IMG/VR virus record: IMGVR_UViG_3300043434_000266
Coordinates: 14,991-78,990 of that record
Length of the DNA: 64,000 nt
Direction: 5' to 3' (one strand)
DNA from: a virus
A program made the position numbers and the translations under genes. The notes under the pieces were generated by a model. The model did no database searches. It worked only from the letters and a program-made list of their open reading frames with translations, and was not told the origin of the DNA. Every line of letters starts with the position of its first letter. Position 1 is the stretch's first letter. Below are positions 1 through 51,234 of the stretch, piece by piece.

Positions 1-2
1 TA

Positions 3-5942: not shown

Positions 5943-5944
5943 TA

Positions 5945-8900
5945 ATGAGTATAATTTGCGACCCTTCAGGTGAATGGAGTATATCCCGAGAAGATATTTT
6001 TAAAATAAACAGAAAGGTAGCAGGAATGCTAGCTGAGAAAATTGAGAAGAACTCTAAAATTGATTTAGGTAAGTTCATCAATGCAATCTTTGATGAGGTT
6101 GTAACTGCAACAGGTGATCAGCAACGAGCACTTGCTGTAGCAAGACATATACCTTTTGCAATTGAATTATCTAAGCAAGTATTCCCAGACAAGATTCGTG
6201 TACCTCTACACAAGAATAAACTATTAGATTCTGCAGCACTTGAAGACGTAAGTGTCTCATTTACAGAGTCTTTAGATAATGTTGCTACATTTCTAAATAA
6301 CTATAGGGATTCGTTAAAACCTAAAGTCAGAGACACTGCAGGAATAACAAACAGTAGTGCAGCTGTTCAACCTAAAACAAAGATAGATGTACTTGACTAT
6401 GTCTTTGTTCCTGACGATGTATTAACTACAACGGGTCAGGAGGTGAATGATGAAAGAGATTTAAGATGGTATTATAACTTTCTAAAGTATTTGGGTGAAC
6501 AAAATATATACCCTAATGCAGACGGTACAATTAATTACTTTGGTAAGACTCTTCAAGTAAGCATAATGACAGGATTAAGTATTCCTGTTGATAAGTTGTA
6601 TCCCTACGAGCGAGTAAAACCCAATATTGAAAAGATGAAAACCAATCAGATTTTCATCGGGTTTACTGATACTAACGGTGACTTTGTTTATTTCGATGAT
6701 AACTATAACTTGACTGATGATACAGGTGCGTTTATTTACTTCCCATTAAGAACAGTTCCTAAAGTTATATCAGAGCAAAACGGTAAGCGTATTTTTGATA
6801 TTGATGAGAGTGTTAGAGAAAACAGAATACAACCAATAGCTAGTATAGTAGCTAACAGGAGACTTGCTGGTGAAAATACAAATGAGGAACTTGTAAGGGA
6901 TCAGATAAATCAAAACTACAACGATATAAAAGATATCACTGATTACTTATTAAGTAAGGGTAACTATAAGAAAAAACTTAAACTGAACCTAAACAGAATA
7001 AGCAGAGGTTTTATCTTTAGAGTTTCTGGAACAGAAGGTAGAAAACGTATAGACAGTATTACAAACTTGTCTGACTTTAATCCGGTTATTCTTGATTCTA
7101 ATGAAGCTAAGGGTATGGTAAAAGCAGCTTTCTATGTAACGGGAGTTGATGAACCTATACCATTTTCAATGGCTGATTTTCCTAAAGAACTTGCTGAGAA
7201 GACAGCAGATCTTTTATTAAATGATGTATACTATGATGGTAATCTAATTACTTCAACTGATAAATCACGCTTGATATCTCAATACTTAGGATTTAATCTT
7301 AATGATAAAACTGGTCCCGAGGGTACTGTAGGATTTATGTATAGTCCTACTACAGGAGAAATACTTATTAATTCTAAACCCTTAAGTACAGATAAAGCAC
7401 AAGCAAAAAATGAGATTGTTGATTACTTAACAAGGGATATAAGTATACCAACTGCTGATAAAGAGATAGCGTTTAAAAATAAATTATTCTTTAACCAGCG
7501 TTTTGTAAATGATAACTTTACAGATTTTAGTCTGTCACCTGTATCAGAAGGATTTGCTTTAACTACAAATCAAGATGTTACTTATGTTGATTGGGTAAAA
7601 GACAATGCATACGTTTATGCAAAAACCACTAATGGTGAAATTCGTGAAGAGAACGGTTATATAGCATTTGAGGTTCCTATTGACACTTTGTACATAGCTC
7701 GTCAGAAAATGACAGATGCTCAGATAAAAGAGTTTAAAGCAAAGCAAGAAAGCAAAACAGTTAAACCTAATAGTGTATTAGAAAATAATGCATCTCCTTC
7801 TTCACCAACAAATTTAGCAGATTTGCTAATGCGTCGTGATATGACTGGTTTTGATGTTAGTGCTACGCCTGAACAAATTGAGAAAGCTAAAGAAGATTAC
7901 GATGCAAAGGTTATTACTTTCAGAGATAAGAACGGTAAGGTTGTACAGAAGAAGCTAACTGATCTTATACCTTACGAGGTAATGTTTAACATTGCTAATA
8001 GTAATGGAAACGTTAGAGCAACATGGACTCGTGCAGGTATTACTCTATTCCAAGGATCCGACTATACAGATTTATATCATGAGTCTTGGCATGGTTTTAC
8101 ACAATGGTTTCTTACAGGTGATCAGAAGTTAAAACTTTATAACGAAGTAAAAAACTCTGGAGAAACTATTCGCTACTATAATAATGGTTGGAAAACTATG
8201 AATAGTAGTAAACTAGATTTTAATAATCCGGACCACATCCTATATGCTGAAGAACACTTAGCTGAGAAATTTAGAGAATACTCTTTAGGTAAGTATACTC
8301 CAGCTAGTGCTGTTGAGAAATCTATGTTTAAAAAGATTTGGGAAGCAATCAAAGCATTGTTTGGTTTTGGTTCTCCTGAAGAAGTACTCGCTCCATCAGG
8401 TTTGGTAGCAAAAGCATTCCAAGATTTAAAAGCTGGTAACCTTGTTGACTACACTTTTGATCAAGCAAACGTTCGTTTTAATAGATTAAATAGTGGTATT
8501 ACAGCACTTAAGAGTAGTACCAGTCCTATTAAGAACTTGGATATTACGTCATCTCTAATGGTTACAGAGGGTATAACTGATGTCATATCAGCTTCTGTAG
8601 ATGAATTAAATAAAGAATACGGGACTAATAAATTTACAATTGGTATTTTTGAAAATGATACCGTAAAGAAAGAAGTTCTTAGAAGAGCAAAATCAAAATT
8701 AATTGACAAACTTAATGAGTTAGAAGCTAAAGTTGATTTAGCTACAGGGTTTGAAAAAGATAGACTTGATAAATCTGTTCAGACTTTATCTTGGGCAATT
8801 GATAATTTTGACATTGATGATGTAAAATCCGGAACACTAAAGTACTATAACGACAGAACTGGATTCTTTACATTGTCTACAGGTGCTAAAGTAATAGATA

Positions 8901-11900
8901 CTGAAACAGCTATAGATGGACAGACTGAAGAAAATACAGATGCTCCAGCAAGTCGTGAAGGTGTGACAACTGATGAAGGTACTGAGTTCTCTGCAGTAGA
9001 TCGTATGTCTGATAGCATGCGATACATCTTAGAATCTCTGTTTGAAAGAGTAGAACCTACTAAAGACAATCCTGAAGGTTATGTATATAACGATTTAGGT
9101 TTTAGAAAAGCAGTTCCGTTTAAAACGGCATTTGCTGTAATAGCAAGTGCTACAGCTAATAAGTTGACACCTGAGGAGATGTACAAATCTCTTCAAACAG
9201 CGTCAGATACTAAAACTCGTAATAAAACTCAGAATTATAAATTCTTATTTATTAAACAGTTGTTAGCTAAGTTAGGTGATCCAAGAAATCCTAACGCACA
9301 AAGTTTGACAGGACAAAATCTTATTAGTGAGTTTTTCTTTACATTCCGTTTAGATAAACAAACCGGTATACAAGTTACTGCAGAAAGAGAAGGTGTGTCA
9401 TTAACTATTAAAGTAGGAACATCTGATTCTGCTGAAAAAGCATTTGGTAGAACATTAGAAAATCGTTTCCAAACCGGAAAGGTGAAATCTAAATATATAA
9501 CTAAGAATAAGAATAACGAGTATGAAATTAATCTAAAAGGAATACTTGAAGATTATCCTTCATCAACAGCTGCTAATGCAAGTCCTGTCTCATTTTTAAG
9601 AGCGCTTGGTATTGATATAACAGACACAGATGCTGTTATTAACTTCTTAAAGAAGCAAAATGCAATTACAAATATCTATCAGACAGTACTTGATAGATCT
9701 AAGCTTATAGATAAACCTACAACGTCATTAGTACCCGAAAGAGCTTCAGGACTATTTAATGATAAAAGTTCTGTATGGAACACGTTACTAGAAGCTGAAA
9801 GTAAGTATTCAGGTTTTAACGCTGGTTACATGTTTAAGAACGTGAATGGAGACCCTCAGTCAGAGATGAACAATCCTAGCACTGCTGGTAACCAGATCCA
9901 CCTTATAAATGCAGCAAAAACCTATGCAGAATTAATTTCAGATCCTCGCACAGCGCACTATAGTACTGAAAGAAATTCTTGGGTAAAAACATCTGTAATG
10001 TTCCAAAAGCTATTTGGAAAAAAACTTACAATAAAGAATACTGAGGACGGTAGACCTGTTAGTATAAACGTTCAATCATTGTTAGGAACTCAAGCACTTA
10101 ATGTAGAAGATGATATCAGAAGTTTAATAAGTGGGATGAAGTCAGCGGCATCTGATGTACAGACTGCTTACTTACGTGATTACTTCATGACCTTATTAAA
10201 CGGTGCATCTGAAGCATTTAAACATGCTGATAAATCATCTACATATGTAGCATCCTTAGATGCAGGAGGTGTATATTACTATGTTAATCCTAAAACATTT
10301 ACATCAAATATTGGTAGAAACAAAGCAAATGAAATCTTTATAGGTTACATTGCTTCTGAGTTAGAGCGTATTAAAAAAGTAAGTTCTAAAAAACTTATAG
10401 GTGAACAAGCTGATGATATTATCTTAGGAGGTAAACCAGGATCATATGAGACTTTAAAAACAAGAGGTTCTGAATTTGTTGTCTTCCATGATATAATAAA
10501 AGATGAATTAAAAGAGGAGCTTATAAAGTTAGATGTAAACACAGTTGAAGATTTTCTAGATCTTGTAGGTAAAGATGCTAGTTTAAAAGATAAGCTAGTC
10601 AATGCTTTAAATAACTATTTTGATCAGTTAGCACTTGAGGACTACACTATGCTAAAATCTTTTGGTGTAACAAAAGCGGAAAACTTCTTTAAGACAATTA
10701 AAAATAGATTCCCGGAACTAGCTGTACTTAGCGATCAAGACGTTTTAAAAGCTACATCTGAAGCATTTACATACAATGCTTTCATACATAAGATGGAGAT
10801 GAGCACCTTGATTTATGGTGATCCTGCACTATACACACATGACAAAGATGAGCACATGAAACGTGTTTCTGGTTTCTTTGCAACAGGTCGTATAGGTAGA
10901 ACAGACAGCAGTATGAATGCATTTATTGCAGCAAACGCTGGATCTTATCATACATCACAGTGGTTTAAACAATCAGGATTTGCTGCACCTACAAATACTT
11001 TAAGCTATCAATCAACAATTCTTCCTATTGCAGTTGGTGAAGACCCCGTAGATAGATCTGTATATCTTGATGAGATGATCAAGATTGCAAAAGAGCAAGG
11101 TATTCCTGAATCAGATTATGCAGCTTATGAAGAAATGAAAAGTGCTGATGGTGAAGCTTGGATAAGTTTTGATGCATATAGAGCGTTGGAGATTCGTTTT
11201 AGAAACTGGAATCCACAGAAAGAACTACTATATAATAAGATCATTAATAATGAAAAGACAGATAGTGCTGAAGTTCTAAAAACATTCTATCCTGTAAAGA
11301 AACTACAATACTCAGGACCACTAGACATTACTAACTTTTCTGCTTTAGCTTTCCATAAGTACTCACTTATTCCATTAATACCTTCTGTCATTAAAGATAG
11401 TCGTTTAGAAGTACTCCATAACAAAATGGTTTCTGAAGGTATTGCATATACTGTACTACAGTCAGGTTCCAAGATTGTATCTATCGGTAAGAATGGTACT
11501 TTGGATTCTTTCTATGATAAAAATTACAATCCTAAATTTGCTGATCCTAATTTTAAGTTTACAAAAAATAACATCTTTGTAGACTATCTTAAAGAACAGT
11601 TAGTTACTAAGGATAAGTTCAAAGAAGAAATTGATTTCCCATCACAGATTCGTAAGCTTATTGTATTAGGAATGGATCCTGAAAGTCCATTAATTAAAAC
11701 CTATTTGAGCAACATCGATAAGATGACAAAAGTTGCGGAGACAGAACTTAAGATGGAGCTGGGTTATAAAGATGTAAAATCTAGAAAAAAAGGTGAACCT
11801 GCTTTAGATCTTAAGAAACTATTAGAGTATGTAAAGTCAAGTCTTACCGCACAAGACTTAGCAGAACAATCAATTGATTTCATTGAGATAGGTGATGACG

Positions 11901-14900
11901 GTAAATTAGTACGTTTCTTAGACCTTTCCGAAGATCCTTCTAAGATTGAAAAGATTATTGGTGCTTTGGTAAACAAACGCATTAATAAGCAACCTGTATA
12001 TGGTGAGCAGTATATTCAAGGATCTAGTGTAGGGTTTGAGAAATTCTCTAAACCTACTCAAATAGATCTTGATAAGTACGGTGAGTGGGGATTACCATTC
12101 TACAGAATGAGTAAAGATGGTAAGTCTGTATCAGCAATGAAAATTAAAATTGCTTTACACGGTAAATTTAAAAACTTACTAAAACTTAATCATACAGATA
12201 ATAAAGTAATCGGTACCATAGAGAGACTTAATGAAATGTTGAAGGATGAGAACTGGTTGAATACCGGAGAACATCGTCAAATGGTTACGCTTATCGGTGC
12301 TCGTATCCCAACGCAGGGTCCAAACTCTATGGAGTTTATGGAGGTATTTGAGTTCTTACCTGAAGAAGCAGGTAACATTATGATTCTACCTTTAGAGATT
12401 GTAGCTAAGTCAGGTGGTGACTTTGATATTGATAAACTTGTAACAATGATTCCCGGTATCACTGATAACGAGGGAGTTATTGAGATTGAGAAACCTAAAT
12501 CATCACGAAAACTTTTAAATACTATAATTGAGGAAAAGTACGAGTTGATTAATGAAATCAAAGAGATCAGAAAAAAGTATCTTAAATCTTATTTAACACC
12601 TGAGCTACAAGAACAAATTGATAGTCTTGAGAAGGAACAGAGTGATGCTTATCAAGAATTCTTATCGCAGTGGACAAATAACTACTATGTAGGAGGTGCT
12701 ACAGAAAAGTACTATAGTAGAATCAGTAATGCTAAACAAGCTATCGACAGCATCTATGAGCAGTTTGATCAAGATCTTAATGACCAATATAATGCTGAAG
12801 TAGAACCGGTTAAAGAAAAACTTCGTCAATTAAACAGAGAAGAAAACTTCTATAAACCAAAAGCTTATCAACAAGATGTATTAAACTCTATGAGAGCTAT
12901 CTTAAGTAGACCTGATAACTACATCAACTTAACAAGACCTAACGGTACTGGTATTTATACAGAAGGTAGTGAAGATGCTCAGTTTAATAATAAGAGTATT
13001 GTTGAGTTCTTAGCTGAGTTTAATCGTGTTTATAATAAGAAGTTTACAAAAACAAATCCATTGGGTAAAAAGAAGATTTCTCCAACCCGTATAATGGAAA
13101 ATGGTTACAATATTTCTAAAGCAGCTGCTCTCTTTACCGGTAAAATGGGTGTTGGTATGCTTGCTACAGGTAACACATTTCACGCATCAGCTGTATTAGC
13201 AGATGTGTATATGAGTCCTTTTAGAGAAGAAGAGAAGCTTGTAAACAAAGTGCCTGTAACTTATAAACTTATACAGCAGTTATTAATACCTCATAACTTT
13301 AAAATAGTAGACGGTGAAAAAGTTATTGATTTTTCTAAACCTAAAGATGCTGATTTAAAAAACTATGTTCGAGATGTAGTTTCAGAGTTAATGAATGGAT
13401 ACTTAGACGTTGCGAAAGATGAGTGGGTTTATGATATTAATGCTGTTAAACAGTTGGAACCAGAATTTGAGTTCATGCTTTTAGCAGGGGTTCCTGTGAA
13501 AACTGCAGCACTAATGTTAGCGCAACCTCTTGTGCGACAGTACCTAAATAAGTTTAAAGAGTACTCTAGTCCTTATGCACTATTCAATCCTGAGGATAAC
13601 TTATCAAATACAAATTTTGCAAAGCGTCAAGCTTTAATTGATGTACTACTTAAAAATGATATGTCTAGTGTGTTCCCTATGGATGACACGGGGGAACCAA
13701 ATACATTTTTAAATACACCTGCATTATTAGAAACACTTCGTGCTCAGTATTTACAAGGGGATCTAAAGAGTAATAGAAACGCTTTAATCTTAGAAAAAGC
13801 AAGATTAGAAGGTTTAGAAGAAGTAACTGTAGGTACTGAATATGAAATATACTTTGATAAATCCGATAGTGTTTCAATACTAACTGTACAGTCTATTACA
13901 CCTAAAAAGAATGAGTATAGTGTTGTATTGAAAAATGAAAAAAGCGGTAAGGAGTATACATATACAGTAAATAAGTTTGGTGAAGGTAAAACAATGCGAT
14001 TTGAAGAACCTGTCACATTCATTGATGTCACTTCAGAAATCAATAGATTATCTAAGCAAATTGCTGATGCTGATATTGAATTAGAAGAAGCTCCTCAAGG
14101 TGAGTTTCCTAATCTAGTAATTGGTGATAAAGTAACAGAAACTTTAAATAGACGTAGGGATGAGTCAGGTAATATTAAAAAAATAGAAGTCCCTGGAGAG
14201 TTTTATAAAGTAGAAGTTCCTGGTCATTCTGATATTAGACTATACTTAAGTAAAAATGACTATGGAACTTGGGTAGTCGAAGAATTCTACTCAGGTTTAC
14301 CTGTTGGTTCAGGATCAACACCTAGTATAGCTTTAGCTGATGCTGAGAAAAAACTTAAAGAGAATCTTTCTAATATCAAGAAAGGTGATAAGGGTTACGA
14401 GATTGCAAAAGAAATAAAAGCTGATGTCAAAAAGTTGACACCCCCTAAAGGAAAAGCAAAATCTGTAAAACCTCAAGAGTCTCCTGAGATACTATTCAAT
14501 AATGAGAAACTGATTGATAACTTAAGAAAACCTGGATCTAGTTTAAGTAAACAACACTTTGCACATTTTGCTGAGATTATCTACATGGCAAGTCAATTGA
14601 CTAACTTAAAGATGGGAATTCGTTTCGACACTTTAAAAAATACTAGTTACTTTGATGCAGATCAGCAAGAAAAAGGATTCGAGGCAACACTAGGTAAAGC
14701 ATTCCCTGCAGATGTAGTTAACAGACTTATTGATAAAACTGTATTAAAAAGTTTTAGAACAGGAGCTTTCTTAAAAGAAGTCATTGGAACATTATTACCT
14801 GTAAGAGCTAATTCAAAAGTTAATAATGCTATTGGATCTATTATTAAGGGTATGTCAGATCTATCAATGGATGATAAGGAAAAACTAGCAAGTCAGTTTA

Positions 14901-16738
14901 ATACAGACTTACTACTTTATATCTTCCAAAACAAGCTATATAGTTTTGATAGTGAGACCGATACATATAGATCTGCTGATATTACTGAGACTGTTGCACC
15001 TATTGCAAAAGAACAAGTTCTTAAAAGAGGAGCATTTCTTAATCCTAACACAGGTGTAATGCATGTTGATAAAGCTCAGATCATTAAAGAGTTTAAATCT
15101 AAAGCATTTACTACACCATCATATGGCGGCGAAAGTAGATTAGCGCCGTTACCAGCATCTATATTTGATAGATATAAAACTGAGAATAGAGTAAAACTCT
15201 ACTATAAGTTTGTACTAGAAAGAGAGTCTTTAAGAGATGCTTATCCATACAATGAGACTATAAACAGTTTTGAGTTCCAAAACTTCTTAGTAATGATAGG
15301 GTTGAATACTGATATACCTATGCGCTATGAAGAATTCATTCGTAACAAAGCTTTAGAAAACTTATATCTTGATGGTCCTTTATTTGGAGCAGAGTACAAG
15401 TTTAATGGTATGACTACTGCTGTAGATAAGTTCTTAAGAATTCTTGAGACTCATCCGGAGTTAGTTACCGCATATCCTGTACTTGATATTATAGGAACTG
15501 TTAAGTCTGGTTCACATAGATTCTTCAAACTTAACGATAGAATTTCTGATGGAACTGTACTTACTGCATATAAAGATCAGATGGCAATCCTTGCGGATCC
15601 GGGTCAGATTAAAGTAAAAAATACTGAGGAAAACTTATACATCAGTCAATTCTTTGCAAAATTAAATACCATAGGATATCTGCAAGCAGGTAACAATAAG
15701 AACTCTGAATTGTATATGATGTCTATATTGGATATGAAACCAATCAGTAGCTATGTTCAGAACACTATAAATGATGTTATGAATAGTCCTAAGTTGGATG
15801 GTGTGTTGGAAGATTTTGAAAGTAAGTTTACCACATCATTTGCAAGACGTAAGTCATTTGCATTTACAAACTATGCGTTTAATGCACCTTATACAGCAAC
15901 TGATAAAGCAACAGTAGAAGATCAACCATTACTGAAGTATATAAGAAACGGAAAGGTTAAAACTGGAAGTATATTCATTAATGAAGAAACAGGAGAGATT
16001 GAAGATGTCTATAAGTATAACGAGTCTATGTTTGAAACTACTAGTAAAGTAGTAGCTAAAGATGATACTGAGTTAACAAAGAGAAACTATAAGATCACTG
16101 AAACTGATGTACAGGCATTATTTCAGATTAATCCTGAAGCAACGTATGTATTTGAAGATTCTTATCCTAAAGTAACTTTAAAGGAAGATGGTTCTTTAAA
16201 CATTGGTCAAAGACCAACTAATCCTACTAGAATTGAGCAAGAAGCATTTCGCGCAGGTTTAGCAACAGGAAACAGTTTTGCAATTCCTATTACAAAGCAA
16301 GATGGTTCTATACCAGCAGTTGAAAAAAATGCGGTACCCAAGGAGCTGATTGACATGTACATTCAAGAACTAGTGAATTTAAGAGATAGTGGAAAAACTA
16401 TCATATTCCCTTCAGAAGGTATAGGTAATAAACTATTAGGATTCTTTAAAAACAGCTTAGGTAACTTAGAAATGAGAAAAGAAGGAGCGAAGAATATAGA
16501 TCTGTACTTATATTTGTCTAAGAAACTTCTAGAGAACTTCGGATATAGAAATCCTAAAATGGAAATGATCACTAAGAACTTTACACCTGAGTTACTTGAG
16601 GGTGCTCAAACAGGACTAGAGTTCATACAGCAGTTCTATATAAACAAGTCAGAGAGTTTAGGGTTAAGTGAACCACTTCAAACTCTAACAGACAAAGAGG
16701 TTAATGATTATATTAATAAATGTAAAGGTATTTCGTAA
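5945..16738 (+). CDS. Virion-packaged single-subunit double-psi beta-barrel DNA-dependent RNA polymerase (crAss-like, phi14:2 gp66 type) with an N-terminal zincin domain
   Basis: RIPTQG..SM..F..LP...GN....P...VAKSGGDFDIDKL, with catalytic DFDID at 12419-12433. HESWH..EEHLAE zincin motif from 8078. 3597 aa. Confidence 0.9.
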   Translation: MSIICDPSGEWSISREDIFKINRKVAGMLAEKIEKNSKIDLGKFINAIFDEVVTATGDQQRALAVARHIPFAIELSKQVFPDKIRVPLHKNKLLDSAALEDVSVSFTESLDNVATFLNNYRDSLKPKVRDTAGITNSSAAVQPKTKIDVLDYVFVPDDVLTTTGQEVNDERDLRWYYNFLKYLGEQNIYPNADGTINYFGKTLQVSIMTGLSIPVDKLYPYERVKPNIEKMKTNQIFIGFTDTNGDFVYFDDNYNLTDDTGAFIYFPLRTVPKVISEQNGKRIFDIDESVRENRIQPIASIVANRRLAGENTNEELVRDQINQNYNDIKDITDYLLSKGNYKKKLKLNLNRISRGFIFRVSGTEGRKRIDSITNLSDFNPVILDSNEAKGMVKAAFYVTGVDEPIPFSMADFPKELAEKTADLLLNDVYYDGNLITSTDKSRLISQYLGFNLNDKTGPEGTVGFMYSPTTGEILINSKPLSTDKAQAKNEIVDYLTRDISIPTADKEIAFKNKLFFNQRFVNDNFTDFSLSPVSEGFALTTNQDVTYVDWVKDNAYVYAKTTNGEIREENGYIAFEVPIDTLYIARQKMTDAQIKEFKAKQESKTVKPNSVLENNASPSSPTNLADLLMRRDMTGFDVSATPEQIEKAKEDYDAKVITFRDKNGKVVQKKLTDLIPYEVMFNIANSNGNVRATWTRAGITLFQGSDYTDLYHESWHGFTQWFLTGDQKLKLYNEVKNSGETIRYYNNGWKTMNSSKLDFNNPDHILYAEEHLAEKFREYSLGKYTPASAVEKSMFKKIWEAIKALFGFGSPEEVLAPSGLVAKAFQDLKAGNLVDYTFDQANVRFNRLNSGITALKSSTSPIKNLDITSSLMVTEGITDVISASVDELNKEYGTNKFTIGIFENDTVKKEVLRRAKSKLIDKLNELEAKVDLATGFEKDRLDKSVQTLSWAIDNFDIDDVKSGTLKYYNDRTGFFTLSTGAKVIDTETAIDGQTEENTDAPASREGVTTDEGTEFSAVDRMSDSMRYILESLFERVEPTKDNPEGYVYNDLGFRKAVPFKTAFAVIASATANKLTPEEMYKSLQTASDTKTRNKTQNYKFLFIKQLLAKLGDPRNPNAQSLTGQNLISEFFFTFRLDKQTGIQVTAEREGVSLTIKVGTSDSAEKAFGRTLENRFQTGKVKSKYITKNKNNEYEINLKGILEDYPSSTAANASPVSFLRALGIDITDTDAVINFLKKQNAITNIYQTVLDRSKLIDKPTTSLVPERASGLFNDKSSVWNTLLEAESKYSGFNAGYMFKNVNGDPQSEMNNPSTAGNQIHLINAAKTYAELISDPRTAHYSTERNSWVKTSVMFQKLFGKKLTIKNTEDGRPVSINVQSLLGTQALNVEDDIRSLISGMKSAASDVQTAYLRDYFMTLLNGASEAFKHADKSSTYVASLDAGGVYYYVNPKTFTSNIGRNKANEIFIGYIASELERIKKVSSKKLIGEQADDIILGGKPGSYETLKTRGSEFVVFHDIIKDELKEELIKLDVNTVEDFLDLVGKDASLKDKLVNALNNYFDQLALEDYTMLKSFGVTKAENFFKTIKNRFPELAVLSDQDVLKATSEAFTYNAFIHKMEMSTLIYGDPALYTHDKDEHMKRVSGFFATGRIGRTDSSMNAFIAANAGSYHTSQWFKQSGFAAPTNTLSYQSTILPIAVGEDPVDRSVYLDEMIKIAKEQGIPESDYAAYEEMKSADGEAWISFDAYRALEIRFRNWNPQKELLYNKIINNEKTDSAEVLKTFYPVKKLQYSGPLDITNFSALAFHKYSLIPLIPSVIKDSRLEVLHNKMVSEGIAYTVLQSGSKIVSIGKNGTLDSFYDKNYNPKFADPNFKFTKNNIFVDYLKEQLVTKDKFKEEIDFPSQIRKLIVLGMDPESPLIKTYLSNIDKMTKVAETELKMELGYKDVKSRKKGEPALDLKKLLEYVKSSLTAQDLAEQSIDFIEIGDDGKLVRFLDLSEDPSKIEKIIGALVNKRINKQPVYGEQYIQGSSVGFEKFSKPTQIDLDKYGEWGLPFYRMSKDGKSVSAMKIKIALHGKFKNLLKLNHTDNKVIGTIERLNEMLKDENWLNTGEHRQMVTLIGARIPTQGPNSMEFMEVFEFLPEEAGNIMILPLEIVAKSGGDFDIDKLVTMIPGITDNEGVIEIEKPKSSRKLLNTIIEEKYELINEIKEIRKKYLKSYLTPELQEQIDSLEKEQSDAYQEFLSQWTNNYYVGGATEKYYSRISNAKQAIDSIYEQFDQDLNDQYNAEVEPVKEKLRQLNREENFYKPKAYQQDVLNSMRAILSRPDNYINLTRPNGTGIYTEGSEDAQFNNKSIVEFLAEFNRVYNKKFTKTNPLGKKKISPTRIMENGYNISKAAALFTGKMGVGMLATGNTFHASAVLADVYMSPFREEEKLVNKVPVTYKLIQQLLIPHNFKIVDGEKVIDFSKPKDADLKNYVRDVVSELMNGYLDVAKDEWVYDINAVKQLEPEFEFMLLAGVPVKTAALMLAQPLVRQYLNKFKEYSSPYALFNPEDNLSNTNFAKRQALIDVLLKNDMSSVFPMDDTGEPNTFLNTPALLETLRAQYLQGDLKSNRNALILEKARLEGLEEVTVGTEYEIYFDKSDSVSILTVQSITPKKNEYSVVLKNEKSGKEYTYTVNKFGEGKTMRFEEPVTFIDVTSEINRLSKQIADADIELEEAPQGEFPNLVIGDKVTETLNRRRDESGNIKKIEVPGEFYKVEVPGHSDIRLYLSKNDYGTWVVEEFYSGLPVGSGSTPSIALADAEKKLKENLSNIKKGDKGYEIAKEIKADVKKLTPPKGKAKSVKPQESPEILFNNEKLIDNLRKPGSSLSKQHFAHFAEIIYMASQLTNLKMGIRFDTLKNTSYFDADQQEKGFEATLGKAFPADVVNRLIDKTVLKSFRTGAFLKEVIGTLLPVRANSKVNNAIGSIIKGMSDLSMDDKEKLASQFNTDLLLYIFQNKLYSFDSETDTYRSADITETVAPIAKEQVLKRGAFLNPNTGVMHVDKAQIIKEFKSKAFTTPSYGGESRLAPLPASIFDRYKTENRVKLYYKFVLERESLRDAYPYNETINSFEFQNFLVMIGLNTDIPMRYEEFIRNKALENLYLDGPLFGAEYKFNGMTTAVDKFLRILETHPELVTAYPVLDIIGTVKSGSHRFFKLNDRISDGTVLTAYKDQMAILADPGQIKVKNTEENLYISQFFAKLNTIGYLQAGNNKNSELYMMSILDMKPISSYVQNTINDVMNSPKLDGVLEDFESKFTTSFARRKSFAFTNYAFNAPYTATDKATVEDQPLLKYIRNGKVKTGSIFINEETGEIEDVYKYNESMFETTSKVVAKDDTELTKRNYKITETDVQALFQINPEATYVFEDSYPKVTLKEDGSLNIGQRPTNPTRIEQEAFRAGLATGNSFAIPITKQDGSIPAVEKNAVPKELIDMYIQELVNLRDSGKTIIFPSEGIGNKLLGFFKNSLGNLEMRKEGAKNIDLYLYLSKKLLENFGYRNPKMEMITKNFTPELLEGAQTGLEFIQQFYINKSESLGLSEPLQTLTDKEVNDYINKCKGIS

Positions 16739-19700
16739 TGATAAATGCATGTCCCGGGGGACCAGAATGGAACAAACTTGTTAAAGCTGTAGGTGAATTT
16801 GAAGCTTATAAGGATTACATAGAGAACGGTGAAACAATCCGTTCTGTTGATGAAGTTTTAAAAAGCAAACCTTTTCTTGAAAAGGTAAAACGTAATGAAG
16901 CTGATACAAAAGCTATAGAAGAAAATCTTCTATCAGGGTTCCTTAAAGATTTTGGAATAACGGTAACAGAATACGAATCATTAAAAGATGATCTTGGATT
17001 AAATGGATATACCGCAACAGACCTTATTACTAAAACTGTTGTTCATCAACCAGGGGAGTCGATATTACCTGAAGCAGCATATATTGCTTATTCTATTTTA
17101 GGTAAACAGAATAATAAAATCAGATCCGAGCTAAGATATTTGATCAGAAAGTGGGACAAGTACGAAGAGAGATTTAACTTCCATAAAGAGTTATTGAAGA
17201 AAAATAAAGTGTCCATTAAGGATTCAAAAGAATGGAAAAACAATATCCGAGATAAGGTTATTATTGACTTCTTAAAAGATAATTTGTATCAATACTACAG
17301 TAATCCTACTGAATTTAAAAAGAATTTGGATACTAAGTGGACTCAAGAAGACTTTACTTTATGGGAGAAGATCATTAGAGCTATTGAAAACTTTTTAAGT
17401 AGAACCTTTGGATATAAGGAAGAAGAGTATATAACTCAGTTAAAAGACACAGGTTCTGCAATAGCAAGTGAACTACTTACACAAAACTATGAATACTTCA
17501 AGTATAATCTTTCAGAAGATCAGATTAGAAAGTACTATAGTAGTACAATAGAATCAGATCCTAAAGCAAAAGATATTGTTACAGTATTACAAAAGATCGG
17601 TTTAGTTTTAACAGGATCATTAGCATTAAGAAGAGCTGGTGAAGTATACAGAACAGCAGAAGAGAGTGTGCATGATATAGATTGGATTGTACCATACCTC
17701 ATGAACATGTCCGGATATAATGCTAAGCTAACTGAAGCAATGTTGAGAGGTGATGAACCTACTCTATTCAGAGAAGATGTTGAAAAACTAAAATTGGATA
17801 AGCGTTCTAAAAACGCTTTGAATCAAATTGCTCAGATGGATTGGTTTCTTAAAGTACAAGAAGCATATCCTAATATAAGATTTACAAACGGATTTTATGG
17901 AAAAGAGCATGCTAATCTAGAAAGTTTTACAGCGCAAGCTGCAATAGACGGTGAATTTTATGATAGCGATGGTTATCATGAAGAAGAATTTGCTACTTAT
18001 AGAAAGGATCCTTATACAGGTGCACCAGTAAAAGAAAAGATTAAGAGAACTATAAAGCACCAAAAGGGGGATTACGTTAAGGGTACCGGTTATCAAATAG
18101 ATTTCTTTGTAAGACTAGAAGAGCATCAGGAAGAACATGATGGTTATTTCTTATTATGGAAAGAAATCATGTTAGCTAAACTAAGAATGGGTAGAGATAA
18201 AGATTTCATTGATTGGAAAGCATTTCAACCATACTTAGCATCTAAGGATAAGTTTAATTTCTTCTATGAAGGATTCCGTCATATAAATTTTGAGAGTTCG
18301 CAAGACTTCTTTTTAGAAGACATGACTCTTAGCAAGAAAATAAAGTATGAGGATATTGATACTATTGTTAACTATATCGTTGATACAATTCCTGGAGTTA
18401 AAACTTATGCTGAAAAGGTAGGATTCACACCTGTTCAAACAAACATGCGTAAAGCTAACTCTGTTGTAGAAGCAATGGTTCAGCAATTGTCATCTAGATT
18501 AAACATCCCTTATCAATTTGTTACAGCTGCTGAAGCACGTGAAATTCTAGAAGGTGCTGGTAAACCATTCACAAACCAAGCGGGTTTTTATGTCGGAGGT
18601 ACAGTATATCTAGTGTCTAGTGATTTGAATCTAGAGACAGCAATACACGAATTTAGTCACCCTTTTATAAGAGCGATTCAACAAGAGAATCCTCAACTAT
18701 TTGAAAAATTAGTTAGTGATCTATCTTTAACAGAAGAGGGTCAAAAGATCATTAACATAACAAAACAGTTATACGGAGAAGACGATCCTTTATATAAGGA
18801 GGAGTTACTAGTTCGAGCATTAACTCGAGCAGCTAGAATGAAACTTACTGGAGCACTTAAGCAGTATAAAAACAAAAGCTTTAAAAGTGTAATCGATAGA
18901 GTATTGTATGCTATAAAAAAGGCATTCAGAAAATACTTTGGTAAGTCTGTTGATGTTTCTGATTTAGATGTAGACACAAGTATTGAAGATCTATCTGAAA
19001 TGTTGTTGTCTGCAGATCAAATTACCTTTGATGTTGAAGCGGTTAGTCAAGAAGAACTTGTAGCAGAAGAACGCCGTGTCAAAGAAGAAATAGATCAGTT
19101 TCTTAATATTGGTAATACCGATAGCGGTGCTATTGCTATTAAGACAATGATTAGTGATTTTACTCGTATATCAAGAGATCACATCGACAAGTTAGTAAAG
19201 AACCGTAATCTTAAAGATATAGCGGAGATCCTTAAATCAGGTTATGATGAATCTGACTATAAGAGTATTATTCGAAATTTAAGTAACTATCAAGAAGATC
19301 TACTAGAAAAAATAGAGGACGCTTCAGAAAGACTAGAATACGAATCTCAAAGAGCAACTGCATTAGTTAACTCTATATACAGAATTAAATATATGAGTGC
19401 CAAGATGGTACTGCATATGAAAGACTTACTTGCTGAGGACATCTCTCCTGATACTGTAAGAAAGTTTTACTATTATAGTAAACTTGTAGATGATTGGTCT
19501 AAGATTATTGCAAAGACGCGTCGAATGATGACGAATGAAGATGTGATAACAGGACCAATGGCAACTGTTGTTTCAGAGATTGAAAGTTTATTGAAGACAG
19601 CAAAAGACTTAGATGTTGATATGAGCATGCGAGGTTCTGTTGATTTGTTAACAGAGACTATCAAACCTTTATCAGATAAAGTTAAGACTTACTATGAGGA

Positions 19701-22700
19701 TATTATTAAAGCGCTTAAAAAGAAAGGTGCTCCTGATAGAATCATAGAACGTTATGAGAGAGAGTATAAAGAAGCAAGCTTGGAAGAGAAAGATATTAGA
19801 GAATGGTTATCTGGGCAACGTGGTGATACACATGCTATTAGTGCATGGTTAGAGTCATTCATGAACATTCAAGATCCTGTTGTATTTGGTCTTGCTAAAT
19901 ACTTGAATGATAATATCAGTGATGTATTGACTAAAGCACAACAGCGTCAGAACAGCAGAACAATGATATTGGAACCAATGCTTAAAGCAGCAGGGTTGGA
20001 TCTAAAAGATTACCAAGCGCTAAACAAGTTGGTTACCTACAAAGAGTTTGAACCTATTTATAATTCTGAAGGAAAGTATGAGGAGAGAGAACGTATGGCA
20101 TACATACACCATGTAAAAGGATATCAAAAAGAGGTTGGTAAGCTAAACGATCAAATTCGTGAAGCAGAAAAGAAATCACAAGAAACTGGTGACACTACAG
20201 AACTTGACGCACTTAGAGCACAATTAAAACAATTGTTACATGATCATTTCTATAATGACTATGACTCTAGGGTCTTTGCATCTGAATCGTTATTTACTCA
20301 AGATGAAATAGGTCAGAAAGCATATACTAAAAGAAGCGCTATCTTAAACAAGATCAATAACCTAGATGCAGGAATTCATCAAAAGACAGAGTTATATGAT
20401 TCTGACTTTCAAGAATTGCGAGACATGCTTTGGAAAGAGTACCAACATTTATATTCATTCTCATACGAGGATGGTAGTATGAAAGTACCTGGTACAGAGG
20501 ATTATGAAATTACAAAACGTTTAAGAGATCATAGAGAAAGAACACGTGAATTTTATGAGTGGGTTCCTATTAAGGGTATGTTCCAAGGATCATTGAGATC
20601 ATATGAGCAACAATTAAGAGCACAAAATCTTACTGATAAACAATTTGAAGAAAAGCGTAAACAATGGATTGATGAGAATACTAAAGTAAAAATCAAACCT
20701 AAGTTTTGGGAGGATGTGCAAGATATCATTGGAAGACTTAAGAAATTAAAAGAATCACTTCCTGTAAATATCGGAGCACAAATGAAGTTGGATGAGTACT
20801 TCAAAGAACTTAATGACCAGATGAGTGCGTATAGAGACGAAGACGGTCAACCTGAAGCTAACTCAATGAGTGAAGAAAAACTTAGACGTATTGCTGAACT
20901 TGATGAACTTATTTCTGAAGAAAGAGATAATCTAAGTAAGTATACAGGGTTGTCAGAAGAGGAGGAACTTTTTGTAGCAGACTTTCAAAATAAAGCACAA
21001 GCATACATTGCAAGCAAGTTTGATCCTCTTAACATGAGTATGGATCAGTACACTGAACTATTTGAAGAGTTTAAAAATCTTAATCCAGCAGATGCCGCAG
21101 ACTATGAGTCTTTGATGGATAAAAGAGTTAGTGCTGAAGATGACCCGATGCTAAAAGAAGAACTAACTTACTTATTGGCAGAGTTAAATGCAATAAGAAG
21201 TAAAGTACCAACCGATCAATATATTGATAAACTCAATTCATTTGTTAAAACATCTGATGATGGTAATGGTATAAACAAGAGTACAATAAAAGAACGTTTT
21301 GGAGTAGAAGCTTTTGATAAAAGTATTATATCAAACATGCTAGAAGATACAGGATTCCTACAGAAATTATTTATAGAGAGTCCTGAATTCAAAGTTTGGT
21401 TTAATCAAAATCACCAACAACGTATTTTTGAATACACGTATGGTCCTAACGCAGGTGATGAAAAAGTAAGCTATTCACCATCAAGTGCTTGGAGAGTTAC
21501 TCGTCCAAACCAAGAAGAGTACTATGAAACCACAGAACTTTATGATGAGGCTGGTAATGTTATTGGTAGTATACAAGGTGTACCTGTAAGTAAATATTGG
21601 AGACGTCAACTTAAATCTGAGTACAGAACCCAAAGAGTTACGTATAAGGAAGCGTTAGAAATGGGTGACCTTACTAAAGCAACAGTTGATGAACAAGGTC
21701 GTTGGTTACCAAAACCCGACAGTAAATATAGGAACGAAGACTACTATAGATTACAGCGTACAAATAAACCGGCATTTGATTTACTTACTCAGATTCATAA
21801 ATTCCATCAAGAAAACCAAGACGGATTAAATGTAAATTCCAGATTGGGTATGTTTATGGCAAGGTACCGTAAAGATAACTATGAGTCTTTAGTATCAGGA
21901 GAAGCAAAGGATAAAGTAACATCAATGATTAAAAACTTCAAGTCATCTTTCAGAAAAGCTGCTGATGATTTTGAAGAAGGTTATAATGCAGAAAACCAGG
22001 TAACCTATGTCAACCTAGATATGTTTGATACTCAAACTTCGGGTATCCCTATTACAGGTAGAGCAGACTTAGATCTAGAAGAAACATCTGAGGATGTTAT
22101 CTCTAGCTTAATGCGTTACATGCTTTCTGCAGAAAGACAAAAGAAACTTATTGAGATTAACCCTAACGTTAGAGCAATACAGAGTATTGTAAATAACGAA
22201 GAGAAAGGGGGTATCAAGGATATGACTAAAGCTAACAAGCAAGATTACCTGACTCAAGGTATCACAAACTTTGCTACTAAGAAAGGTAAATCAGTTCGTG
22301 CTCAAGTCATTAATGCAATGATCGAAAGAGAGCTTGAAGGTAAACAGTTAGTAGGTGTAACCGAGAATCTTGCATGGGCAAACAAACTTGCAGGTAACTT
22401 AATGAAGATGTCATCATTTGCATTCTTTGCATTTGACGCAGCTTCCGCACTTAAGAACGCATTCAACGCGCAGTTCCAGTCTATGATTGCAGCTGCTGGT
22501 GGTGACGGTTTAGATATGGCGAGTATTACAAAGGGTGCTTATTGGGCACAGTTTGCATCAAGTCAGGTATCATTTGAGATTTATAAGTTCGGACCTAAGT
22601 CTTTGAATGTTCAATTAGTAGAGATGTTTGATCCGGAAGCTACACGTTTTGATAAAGACGCTGGTAGAAAGTTTGCGGAAAGTTCTACAAGAACATTGTC

Positions 22701-23757
22701 AAGAGACGTTGCAAACATGCAATGGTTTACAAACTTCCGTGCTTGGACGCAGATGAATGCTACCTTGCAATTATTTGGAGGTATGATGAACCATCAAAAA
22801 GTAAAGCAAACTGTAAATGGTGTTACTAGAGAGATTCCTTACATTGAAGCATGGGAAGTTAAGGACGGACAACTAACTGTAAAACAAGGAGTTGACCAAG
22901 AATGGAACATTGGGGGTAAGAAGTTTACAGAAATGAGAAACAAAGTTCAAGCTGCTAACAAGAACTTGAACGGTGCACTATCCAAGATGGATCAACCAAT
23001 GGCAAACAGATACTTGTTGTATAGAATGATTGCTTATATGAAGACGTGGTTTACTCGTCAGTTCATGTCTCGTTTCCAATTTAGAGGAAACTGGAAAGAA
23101 CCTCGAGCACGTTGGGATATTCAAGCAAACGATTTACCTATAGGTTACTACATCCAAGGACTAGATACTTTAAGAAGAGGTATCATGAGTATGGGTGCTG
23201 ACTTTAAATATATGACACCTAGAGAGATCGCCGCTGCTAAGAAAGTAGCAATGGAAATGGGTATCATTATATTAGGAAGCGTTCTCATCAAACTATTGTT
23301 TAATTATGATGACGACGATGAGGATCGTTTCAACAAACTAAGACAGAAATCAGGACCACTTCCAGGATTATTTGTAGCGGATACTCCATTTGAGTTTAAT
23401 GCTACAGGATACTTAGAGAACCAATCATTGTTCTTAGCTAAGTCAACTATGAACGAACTTCAAGCAATGACTCCTGTGTTCGGTTACGATGACTATATTA
23501 ACATGCTTAAGTTAGAATCTGTAGCTGTAAGTAGTACTGTAGTAAATATGGGTAAGACTCTACAAACAATAACCCAACTTGTAGCACAAGATCCTGGAGC
23601 ACGTTACAAACGTGACGCAGGTCCATACGAGTGGCAACAAGCAGGAGAGTTAAAGAGTATTAACTATTTGCTAAAAAGTGTAGGTATTTCTGGTAAGATG
23701 ATTGATCCGGTAAACGCACTTAGAGGGTTCGAAAGTGCACAAAATCGTTTCAAGTAA
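16738..23757 (+). CDS. Giant ejection/polyvalent virion protein with nucleotidyltransferase-like and zincin domains and hydrophobic C-terminal segments
   Basis: LVLTGSLAL..HDIDW..QIDFF..KLRMGRDKD; AIHEFSH..EELLVRA; C-terminal MGIIILGSVLIKLLF. Third gene of the giant trio, coupled by a TAATG overlap. Confidence 0.7.
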   Translation: MINACPGGPEWNKLVKAVGEFEAYKDYIENGETIRSVDEVLKSKPFLEKVKRNEADTKAIEENLLSGFLKDFGITVTEYESLKDDLGLNGYTATDLITKTVVHQPGESILPEAAYIAYSILGKQNNKIRSELRYLIRKWDKYEERFNFHKELLKKNKVSIKDSKEWKNNIRDKVIIDFLKDNLYQYYSNPTEFKKNLDTKWTQEDFTLWEKIIRAIENFLSRTFGYKEEEYITQLKDTGSAIASELLTQNYEYFKYNLSEDQIRKYYSSTIESDPKAKDIVTVLQKIGLVLTGSLALRRAGEVYRTAEESVHDIDWIVPYLMNMSGYNAKLTEAMLRGDEPTLFREDVEKLKLDKRSKNALNQIAQMDWFLKVQEAYPNIRFTNGFYGKEHANLESFTAQAAIDGEFYDSDGYHEEEFATYRKDPYTGAPVKEKIKRTIKHQKGDYVKGTGYQIDFFVRLEEHQEEHDGYFLLWKEIMLAKLRMGRDKDFIDWKAFQPYLASKDKFNFFYEGFRHINFESSQDFFLEDMTLSKKIKYEDIDTIVNYIVDTIPGVKTYAEKVGFTPVQTNMRKANSVVEAMVQQLSSRLNIPYQFVTAAEAREILEGAGKPFTNQAGFYVGGTVYLVSSDLNLETAIHEFSHPFIRAIQQENPQLFEKLVSDLSLTEEGQKIINITKQLYGEDDPLYKEELLVRALTRAARMKLTGALKQYKNKSFKSVIDRVLYAIKKAFRKYFGKSVDVSDLDVDTSIEDLSEMLLSADQITFDVEAVSQEELVAEERRVKEEIDQFLNIGNTDSGAIAIKTMISDFTRISRDHIDKLVKNRNLKDIAEILKSGYDESDYKSIIRNLSNYQEDLLEKIEDASERLEYESQRATALVNSIYRIKYMSAKMVLHMKDLLAEDISPDTVRKFYYYSKLVDDWSKIIAKTRRMMTNEDVITGPMATVVSEIESLLKTAKDLDVDMSMRGSVDLLTETIKPLSDKVKTYYEDIIKALKKKGAPDRIIERYEREYKEASLEEKDIREWLSGQRGDTHAISAWLESFMNIQDPVVFGLAKYLNDNISDVLTKAQQRQNSRTMILEPMLKAAGLDLKDYQALNKLVTYKEFEPIYNSEGKYEERERMAYIHHVKGYQKEVGKLNDQIREAEKKSQETGDTTELDALRAQLKQLLHDHFYNDYDSRVFASESLFTQDEIGQKAYTKRSAILNKINNLDAGIHQKTELYDSDFQELRDMLWKEYQHLYSFSYEDGSMKVPGTEDYEITKRLRDHRERTREFYEWVPIKGMFQGSLRSYEQQLRAQNLTDKQFEEKRKQWIDENTKVKIKPKFWEDVQDIIGRLKKLKESLPVNIGAQMKLDEYFKELNDQMSAYRDEDGQPEANSMSEEKLRRIAELDELISEERDNLSKYTGLSEEEELFVADFQNKAQAYIASKFDPLNMSMDQYTELFEEFKNLNPADAADYESLMDKRVSAEDDPMLKEELTYLLAELNAIRSKVPTDQYIDKLNSFVKTSDDGNGINKSTIKERFGVEAFDKSIISNMLEDTGFLQKLFIESPEFKVWFNQNHQQRIFEYTYGPNAGDEKVSYSPSSAWRVTRPNQEEYYETTELYDEAGNVIGSIQGVPVSKYWRRQLKSEYRTQRVTYKEALEMGDLTKATVDEQGRWLPKPDSKYRNEDYYRLQRTNKPAFDLLTQIHKFHQENQDGLNVNSRLGMFMARYRKDNYESLVSGEAKDKVTSMIKNFKSSFRKAADDFEEGYNAENQVTYVNLDMFDTQTSGIPITGRADLDLEETSEDVISSLMRYMLSAERQKKLIEINPNVRAIQSIVNNEEKGGIKDMTKANKQDYLTQGITNFATKKGKSVRAQVINAMIERELEGKQLVGVTENLAWANKLAGNLMKMSSFAFFAFDAASALKNAFNAQFQSMIAAAGGDGLDMASITKGAYWAQFASSQVSFEIYKFGPKSLNVQLVEMFDPEATRFDKDAGRKFAESSTRTLSRDVANMQWFTNFRAWTQMNATLQLFGGMMNHQKVKQTVNGVTREIPYIEAWEVKDGQLTVKQGVDQEWNIGGKKFTEMRNKVQAANKNLNGALSKMDQPMANRYLLYRMIAYMKTWFTRQFMSRFQFRGNWKEPRARWDIQANDLPIGYYIQGLDTLRRGIMSMGADFKYMTPREIAAAKKVAMEMGIIILGSVLIKLLFNYDDDDEDRFNKLRQKSGPLPGLFVADTPFEFNATGYLENQSLFLAKSTMNELQAMTPVFGYDDYINMLKLESVAVSSTVVNMGKTLQTITQLVAQDPGARYKRDAGPYEWQQAGELKSINYLLKSVGISGKMIDPVNALRGFESAQNRFK

Positions 23758-51140: not shown

Positions 51141-51155
51141 CAGTTTTTAAGTTTG

Positions 51156-51234
51156 TAGAGAAGACAGGATTCGAACCTGTATGTAGTGAGCCTTATATAA
51201 GACTTACTATGCGTAACCATTCCGCCACTTCTCT
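51156..51234 (-). ncRNA. tRNA-like RNA A (Leu-type D arm, non-canonical anticodon arm)
   Basis: Acceptor AGAGAAG/CTTCTCT, D arm TGGCGGAATGGTTACGC, T arm ACAGG-TTCGAAT-CCTGT; middle arm is an 11-bp stem (one mismatch) with a 4-nt loop. Confidence 0.75.

Follow-up and report, generated by a model that had tools for sequence, protein, structure and literature searches.

Could a giant protein encoded beside an uncultured crAss-like phage's virion RNA polymerase carry an enzyme that acts on the host ahead of phage gene expression? The question is raised by a 64,000-nucleotide stretch of viral DNA, referred to below as the window, which corresponds to bases 14991-78990 of the 78,990-bp IMG/VR virus record IMGVR_UViG_3300043434_000266 (CheckV completeness 65%). 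A first-pass annotation had placed a toxin-type nucleotidyltransferase (NTase) domain, embedded in a virion ejection protein, at positions 17560-18230, an interval that falls within a single open reading frame (ORF) of 2339 residues on the plus strand (16738..23757). Our analysis leads us to the view, to which we assign a probability of roughly 55%, that residues 235-531 of this protein form an active NTase with the motif layout of AbiEii and MenT enzymes, which would be co-ejected with the virion RNA polymerase and would modify a host target, preferably the 3' end of an RNA. This view draws on sequence conservation, on a structural model and on analogy with better known systems, each of which is considered in turn.

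Conserved motifs of the domain

The four strings that had suggested an NTase each occur once in the 2339-residue protein, at the coordinates reported for them and, like all other features of this protein, on the plus strand. Motif I, LVLTGSLAL (residues 289-297; 17602..17628), contains the pair G293-S294 (nucleotides 17614-17619). Motif II (17650..17685) consists of R305 followed by H312-D313-I-D315, the string HDIDW itself covering residues 312-316 (17671-17685), and a third acidic site, QIDFF (residues 453-457; 18094..18108), supplies D455 (18100-18102). Motifs III and IV share the segment LAKLRMGRDKDFIDW (residues 479-493; 18172..18216), with K481, R486 and then K488-D489-x-x-D492. The proposed limits of about residues 270-500 were a fair choice for the core of a Pol-beta-fold NTase domain, and the unit conserved among homologues extends over residues 235-531 (17440..18330).

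With this segment as the query, 56 clusters of homologous proteins came up in a word-indexed search at E ≤ 1e-3, of which 53 (the protein's own cluster apart) share 45-71% identity across the whole segment, in proteins of 1348-2806 residues. HMMER, run exhaustively over 1.84 billion representatives (50% clustering), found 147 proteins at E ≤ 1e-3, including 91 at E ≤ 1e-10 and 35 at E ≤ 1e-30. From the 194 proteins pooled from both searches, 182 copies of the domain were cut, and G293, S294, R305, D313 and D315 are each present in all 182, with H312 in 177. Since hmmalign left the C-terminal half unplaced in 26-27 of the copies, counts for that half refer to the placed ones: K481, K488 and D489 are each found in 155 of 155, R486 in 156 of 156, D492 and F457 in 154 of 155, and D455 in 150 of 155. 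A MAFFT alignment of 43 sequences (A1), whose members are 21-55% identical to the window's domain, yields the identical set of invariant residues.

The constraint is concentrated in one part of the protein. When 18 full-length homologues are compared in blocks of 50 residues, the blocks agree at a mean of 0.31-0.74 in residues 51-550, with the value of 0.74 at residues 451-500, and at only 0.04-0.33 in the other ~1800 residues. The conservation indicates that the NTase motifs are real and under strong selection, not chance. We infer that the domain is catalytically competent, since every residue that catalysis needs has been retained and no other part of the protein is as constrained.

Predicted fold and family assignment

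An AlphaFold2 model built on alignment A1 reached a mean predicted local distance difference test score (pLDDT) of 84.8 and a predicted template modelling score (pTM) of 0.81, with values of 85-98 in the blocks around the motifs. In this model, with secondary structure assigned by DSSP, the turn between a strand (56-58 in domain numbering) and a helix (59-66) is occupied by G293-S294, strand 79-84 opens with D313 and D315 (D79 and D81 in that numbering), and D455 lies on strand 218-225, with K481 in helix 240-250 and K488, D489 and D492 in helix 253-261. Sequence and model therefore agree on the hG[GS] turn, the DxD on the following strand and the carboxylate on a later strand that mark Pol-beta-fold enzymes, and the GS, DxD and later D named by the first-pass annotation are conserved on the elements where they would be expected.

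Structural neighbours were sought with VIA-align, a search of 48,161 chains that is independent of Foldseek. The top matches, with the score given first in each bracket, were MenT1 (chain 8an4_A; 8.3, 4.0, 150 of 195), LnuA (8.1, 3.2, 127), TglT/MenT3 (8.1, 3.9, 153), TM1012 (7.2), ANT(2'') (7.1), Megavirus poly(A) synthase (7.0), JHP933 (6.6) and MenT4 (5.1). Judging by their titles, at least 43 of the 50 best chains, which are those listed, are Pol-beta-fold enzymes. The model thus resembles solved members of this fold, in support of the NTase-like domain that the first-pass annotation had proposed. The qualifier 'toxin-type' is not established, because LnuA, ANT(2'') and TM1012 tie with the MenT toxins; the AbiEii family of Pfam gives no match either.

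How close, then, is the domain to the AbiEii enzymes? According to the motif descriptions in Dy et al. 2014, AbiEii/DUF1814 proteins have hG[G/S] as motif I, a spacer of 15 residues between motifs I and II in DUF1814 (usually 9-13), a motif II DhD that holds an arginine missing from other Pol-beta proteins, a motif III represented by the lysine in KLxAaxxR, and a +DxxD pentad as motif IV; the toxicity of AbiEii requires each of the four. In the window's domain, the spacer from S294 to D313 measures 18 residues and includes the invariant R305, in line with a long, arginine-bearing spacer, and K481-x4-R486 and K488-D489-F-I-D492 fit motifs III and IV. The 'K..GR.KD..D' helix of the first-pass annotation accordingly corresponds to the published motif pair III and IV of DUF1814. 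The motif residues also correspond to D41, K137 and D152 of MenT1, as far as the literature names the residues of that enzyme.

There are differences as well. Here, motif III adjoins motif IV and the two lie nearer to each other than in MenT and AbiEii proteins, and the closer homologues of the window's domain bear a beta-hairpin insertion which distant homologues are without. MenT1, MenT3 and AbiEii are chromosomal toxins of 200-300 residues, whereas this domain is embedded in a phage protein of 2339 residues whose gene is flanked by that of a virion RNA polymerase and by small lysis-region ORFs. LnuA, ANT(2'')-Ia and TM1012, a set of small antibiotic-adenylylating NTases, match in structure but not by sequence profile, and belong to another biological setting.

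Library searches add little. Neither the window's genome nor the domain itself (at E ≤ 1) matches PF08843 (AbiEii), which is also missing among the 25 Pfam families listed, out of 32, for the 43 members of A1. The whole protein has only three chance-level matches in Pfam at E ≤ 1; domain and whole protein together have one chance-level match in NCBIfam and none in PHROGs or PADLOC. Searched singly against Pfam, three of the 43 members show a sub-threshold match to NTP_transf_2 (best E 0.019) and one to Polbeta (E 0.0036), and neighbours in the ESM Atlas bear PF10706, DUF2204, DUF6036, AbiEii and Poly_A_pol_cat; these sub-threshold matches and neighbours are weak, independent hints of NTase identity. 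Given that the PF08843 model has no match and that motif spacing and the insertion differ, we regard the domain as a new family within the Pol-beta superfamily, one that would work like DUF1814 enzymes, and not as a member of PF08843.

A mobile cassette

Directly ahead of the NTase lies a helical N-domain (residues ~45-234; 16870..17439), whose conservation is 0.42-0.64 per block in the 18 full-length homologues. The same adjacency is seen in 103 of the 194 family proteins, including pairs deep inside proteins; in 88 the hidden Markov model (HMM) of the N-domain found none, and in three it lies farther from the NTase. The position of the unit varies: among the 124 proteins of at least 1500 residues, the NTase starts at or before residue 400 in 93, between 401 and 1000 in 13 and beyond 1000 in 18, and five proteins have two copies. 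Shorter proteins matched the A1 profile in 16 cases at E ≤ 1e-3, and 12 of these clusters are stand-alone proteins of 516-536 residues, made up of the N-terminal motif, the N-domain and the NTase, and nothing more. Furthermore, three related IMG/VR loci encode the cassette as a separate gene for 525-730 residues (L007, 9260-11449; L010, 9179-10903; L011, 9341-10915), placed between the gene of the virion RNA polymerase and a separate gene for 1613-1991 residues that immediately follows.

Taken together, these comparisons indicate that N-domain and NTase are a mobile cassette of ~490 residues and the best-conserved part of the protein; its mobility, and the fact that it can be fused or split, follow from the stand-alone proteins and from the split genes of the three loci. 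The window's protein is therefore a fusion, joined at about residues 531-545. Modelled as a whole (residues 1-531, alignment A2), the cassette had a pLDDT of 62.6 and a pTM of 0.49, with the N-domain mostly below 50. Two identities were tried for the N-domain and rejected: LPD23, a lead from the Atlas (18% of one cluster) that Pfam returned for 0 of 15 members, and HEPN, for which an Rx3H string had nothing else in its favour. In one homologue (P0018) an ART-PolyVal domain stands just upstream of the cassette (residues 151-284; E 1e-6, 30.0 bits at a cut-off of 31.2), so that such proteins appear to gather effector domains.

Gene context and probable delivery

Would such a protein be delivered into the cell? 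The gene follows an ORF of 3597 residues (5945..16738, plus strand) that resembles the virion RNA polymerase (vRNAP) of crAss-like phages. This ORF contains DFDID (residues 2159-2163; 12419-12433) and, in a local blastp with four sequences, matches gp66, the virion RNA polymerase characterised by experiment in Cellulophaga phage phi14:2, at E 3.6e-23 over ~1000 residues that include the catalytic DFDID of gp66, and crAss001 gp50 at E 5.7e-11; a PDB search gave no sequence match to it. The catalytic role is that assigned to DFDID 1361-1365 of gp66 in the Drobysheva et al. preprint. An N4-type (T7-like) vRNAP setting was considered and rejected, since the DFDID motif and the gp66 homology are of the crass type. 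The order of a giant ORF with DFD[IV]D followed by the NTase ORF is found in the window and in five of eight related IMG/VR loci (L004, L007, L009, L010 and L011); of the others, L008 stops at the contig edge, and no ORF with DFDxD lies within the flank in L005 or L006.

The same preprint places gp66 and the products of the adjacent g065 and g067 in the virions of phi14:2 and other crAss-like phages, describes them as fused into one polyprotein in some phages, and assigns a zincin-like domain to gp65 and its orthologues. The GenBank record of phi14:2 has g065 following the vRNAP gene and annotates it from virion proteomics by tandem mass spectrometry, and according to Bayfield et al. 2023 gp47, gp49 and gp50 are found in crAss001 virions. 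As the last giant gene of the cargo and vRNAP block, the 2339-residue ORF is the positional equivalent of g065. With phi14:2 gp65 and the crAss001 cargo it shares the slot after a DFDID vRNAP, an HExxH motif and a weak C-terminal similarity; the cargo proteins of these two phages were detected in virions by mass spectrometry. Unlike the window's protein, phi14:2, crAss001, cr50_1 and cr114_1 give no match to the profile of the NTase domain.

The HExxH motif in question is HEFSH (residues 637-641; 18646..18660), of the zincin type, which stands ~105 residues past the cassette and whose E638 and H641 are conserved in at least 90% of the 18 full-length homologues. The vRNAP ORF has an HExxH of its own (HESWH, ~8078-8092), and, of the vRNAP ORFs in the related loci, those of L004, L007, L009 and L011 contain similar HE[AV][WF]H strings and that of L010 does not. 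Neither the HExxH region of the vRNAP ORF nor that of the NTase ORF matches a Pfam peptidase model.

Additional similarities to crassvirus proteins lie outside the NTase domain. The 1386-residue protein of cr50_1, whose gene also follows a giant gene, is matched by the window's protein at E 4e-5 in a tblastn search of all phages, where it was the only match, and at E 3e-11 in a local blastp of two to four sequences. In a search of equally few sequences, the family profile finds cr114_1 gp020 at E 9e-14, with an N-terminal signature at E 4e-10 and the C-terminal region at E 1e-8. The signature C-P-N-K-N..EW..LV..GE..AY is common to the window (16738..16842, where it reads MINACPGGPEWNKLVKAVGEFEAY and contains C5, the sole cysteine of the 2339-residue protein), to its homologues and to cr114_1 gp020 (L012, 11992-12110), the product of the last giant gene in that gut crassvirus, and may be a packaging or linkage signal.

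The description of the product as a 'virion ejection protein' thus gains indirect support from the position after vRNAP, the weak gp65 similarity and the N-terminal motif shared with cr114_1 gp020. Based on orthology and gene position, packaging and ejection of the NTase protein are a reasonable inference.

The surroundings are those of a large block of cargo genes. Four more large ORFs lie farther upstream in the record. On the part of the same record that covers bases 1-15200 (L003), an ORF open at its 5' end (2-5854) contains a PG_binding_1 domain at residues 992-1056 (E 9e-7; 29.4 bits, cut-off 23), which fits a cell-wall-acting virion protein. Upstream ORFs of 780, 870 and 1057 residues have no PHROG match, and the first two no Pfam match. 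Within the 2339-residue protein, a Kyte-Doolittle scan picks out one strongly hydrophobic 19-residue stretch, starting at residue 2166 (23233..23289; mean 1.59). Downstream come an endolysin-like gene and, on the opposite strand, replication genes; ARAGORN reports one tRNA-Arg(TCT) in the window (51155-51234, minus strand).

Terminal cysteines of the cargo proteins

One further feature may link the NTase protein to vRNAP. In a survey of window positions 3-23757, of loci L004, L007, L009, L010 and L011 and of the proteins P0196-P0208, all six vRNAP ORFs (those of the window and of the five loci) have a cysteine 0-4 residues from the C-terminal end, and all six ORFs that follow vRNAP have one at position 3-6. 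Each of the 12 stand-alone cassette proteins contains exactly two cysteines, one at position 3-4 and one 0-6 residues from the end, and the split-off cassette proteins of L007, L010 and L011 likewise have exactly two, one at each end. The last protein of the block has an N-terminal cysteine only, a single one at position 3-5 in 15 of 19 full-length homologues. This pattern suggests a fit with head-to-tail linkage of the cargo proteins, and lends indirect support to joint transport of the NTase protein and vRNAP. As a side observation, the ORF after the cargo block of L009 (16153-20862) has 63 cysteines in 1570 residues, against 1-2 in the adjacent cargo proteins of 2000-3600 residues.

Relation to polyvalent proteins and to injected enzymes

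One precedent is the concept of polyvalent proteins. As outlined by Iyer et al. 2017 (PMC5512222), these include Pol-beta NTases among their domains, which are minimal (four strands and three helices), fused to ArdC-N, related to NTox45 and found mainly in firmicute conjugative elements. The likeness lies in an NTase situated within a large multidomain protein thought to be sent into a recipient cell; in addition, zincin-type and ART domains are described for polyvalent proteins, and here there is an HExxH motif in the window's protein and ART-PolyVal in the homologue P0018. By comparison with those minimal NTases, the window's domain is larger, of the MenT/LnuA type and located in crAss-like phages. 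The defining traits of a polyvalent protein, i.e., a large multidomain phage protein with effector domains in a packaging context, are found in the combination of NTase cassette and HExxH within the vRNAP and cargo block. The PolyVal models of Pfam (MPTase-PolyVal and the LPD families) have no match in the 2339-residue protein. A further likeness, cited in the same paper, is with T4 Alt, a packaged ADP-ribosyltransferase, in that an injected enzyme modifies the host at time zero; fold and chemistry differ, and the analogy extends to function only.

The transcription block of crassviruses consists, according to Yutin et al. 2021, of several large multidomain proteins. The word 'nucleotidyltransferase' appears nowhere in the main text of that paper, and full-text searches of the literature, which covered main texts, brought up no report of an NTase in crassvirus cargo proteins; supplementary tables might list it.

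Proposed role and alternatives

In the mechanism that we favour, the protein would be packaged with vRNAP and ejected into the cell with the cassette first. Inside the cell, the enzyme would use a nucleoside triphosphate and Mg2+ to transfer a nucleoside monophosphate (NMP) onto a hydroxyl of a host target, ahead of phage gene expression. The preferred target would be an RNA 3' end, as it is for the MenT toxins that act on tRNA acceptor stems, and the outcome would be an early shut-off of translation or interference with an RNA-based defence. We prefer the RNA 3' end weakly, because the characterised enzymes of the same layout extend tRNA acceptor stems and because the invariant basic residues would fit a polynucleotide.

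A number of results weigh against this reading. The NTase domain matches no Pfam family at E ≤ 1, and no Pfam NTase model exceeds its cut-off for the window's domain or for any of the 43 members; PDB sequences yielded nothing, either by phmmer or with the A1 profile. No Foldseek match reached E ≤ 1e-3 in PDB (best E 0.044), where the first NTase listed is 4ok0 at rank 27 with a probability of 0.63, or in BFVD (best E 2.3e-3). The small-molecule enzymes LnuA and ANT(2'') equal the MenT toxins in score. The motifs are also spaced differently: the arginine of AbiEii stands four residues ahead of the first aspartate, while R305 stands eight ahead of D313, and K481 and D492 are 11 residues apart, as opposed to 19 in AbiEii and 15 in MenT1. 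With respect to delivery, gp65 is matched weakly, in its C-terminal part (E 4e-4, four-sequence blastp), the full-length family HMM does not match gp65 at E ≤ 1, and presence in the virion is deduced. An enzyme that blocks tRNA would, moreover, harm the translation of the phage too.

To these points should be added the distribution of the domain. The A1 profile, which as a positive control recovers the domain in the window's own record at E 2.9e-101, detects it in none of four reference crassviruses (phi14:2, crAss001, cr50_1 and cr114_1) at E ≤ 0.1. Five tblastn queries, chosen so as to represent separate family branches (the window's domain, P0087, P0177, P0111 and P0151) failed to find the domain in 50,697 GenBank phage records, which thus offer no cultured phage that carries it. 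Megablast with the domain against GenBank phages found no match either, and other parts of P0087 match the Flavobacterium phages FpV3 and FpV4 and gut crassviruses. To judge by relatives of this kind and phi14:2, Bacteroidota of marine or freshwater habitats are the likely hosts. Finally, a pattern and tblastn scan of 185,579 prokaryotic species, with one genome per species, produced 98 pattern matches and confirmed none. Since reference crassviruses, GenBank phages and prokaryotic genomes all gave no domain, these searches indicate that the cassette serves as an accessory module in crAss-like phages of an uncultured branch.

Which other explanations could account for the same observations? 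The one that bears most directly on delivery is that the protein does not enter the cell with the virion, so that the domain would act late in the producing cell or the giant protein would be purely a replication or transcription factor. The weak gp65 homology speaks for it, as does the fact that the giant ORFs match no PHROG structural family; but the gene follows vRNAP as it does in phi14:2, whose g065-g067 products were seen in virions by tandem mass spectrometry, a peptidoglycan-binding domain (E 9e-7) occurs in an ORF farther upstream in that block, and the terminal cysteines tie the NTase protein to vRNAP, so that we regard non-delivery as doubtful. Somewhat less likely in our view is that the enzyme is delivered and attaches NMP to a protein (NMPylation), be it a host defence effector, the host RNA polymerase or a phage cargo such as vRNAP, which would be silenced until ejection. 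MNT antitoxins NMPylate HEPN toxins in this way. NMPylation of proteins is also what Iyer et al. 2017 (PMC5512222) propose for the Pol-beta NTases of polyvalent proteins; the P0018 homologue pairs the cassette with ART-PolyVal, a protein-modifying domain, MenT-family toxins are reported to modify themselves (PMC11375011), and vRNAP is described as self-inhibited before packaging in the Drobysheva et al. preprint. On the other hand, motifs III and IV have the DUF1814 layout, and tRNA is the target of the DUF1814 members that have been characterised; no MNT or kanamycin-NTase structure is among the best 50 chains, a weak argument given that such an absence excludes nothing.

The targets may also be sought among small molecules or among the phage's own transcripts. 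The structural tie with LnuA and ANT(2'') would suit a transferase of that kind, acting on small molecules or signal nucleotides, which would inactivate a host anti-phage compound or would make or cap a nucleotide messenger; with the motif layout of tRNA-acting enzymes set beside this tie, we consider it improbable. Much the same holds for an enzyme in the service of phage RNA, which would add 3' tails to early vRNAP transcripts or repair tRNA or RNA 3' ends damaged by host nucleases: its chemistry on RNA ends would be that of the layout, but the best matches are compact enzymes of the MenT/LnuA type and not polymerases with RNA-binding domains, and the cassette moves independently of vRNAP and occupies C-terminal positions in other giant proteins. 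The prospect of a module without catalysis, which would have a structural or binding role and merely keep the NTase fold, is remote, as dead enzymes usually lose their catalytic residues and the expected ones are invariant or nearly so over 182 copies that are otherwise 21-71% identical to the window's domain; the unusual motif spacing is what could be said for it.

The proposal of a host-directed NTase co-ejected with vRNAP can be taken one step further, to a scenario that is speculative and, taken as a whole, rather unlikely. AbiEii/MenT chemistry would here be turned on the host: the cassette, chained to vRNAP and ejected first, ahead of the DNA, would at time zero extend or block host tRNAs at their 3' ends, while phage tRNA or tRNA-like RNAs would escape, act as decoys or be the real substrates.

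Implications for crAss-like phages

CrAss-like phages rank with the most abundant of known viruses, and to our knowledge their giant cargo proteins are almost wholly unannotated. Our results give one of these proteins a concrete, testable enzymatic module, and add to the Pol-beta superfamily what appears to be a new NTase family of 147 representative clusters, encountered in giant phage proteins, with the active-site layout of tRNA-modifying toxins. Additionally, the fission and fusion of the cassette, together with the terminal-cysteine rule, suggest how cargo proteins may be organised for ordered ejection. If the enzyme is injected, it would represent a new class of enzyme for host takeover or counter-defence at time zero, and would extend the idea of polyvalent proteins to crassviruses.

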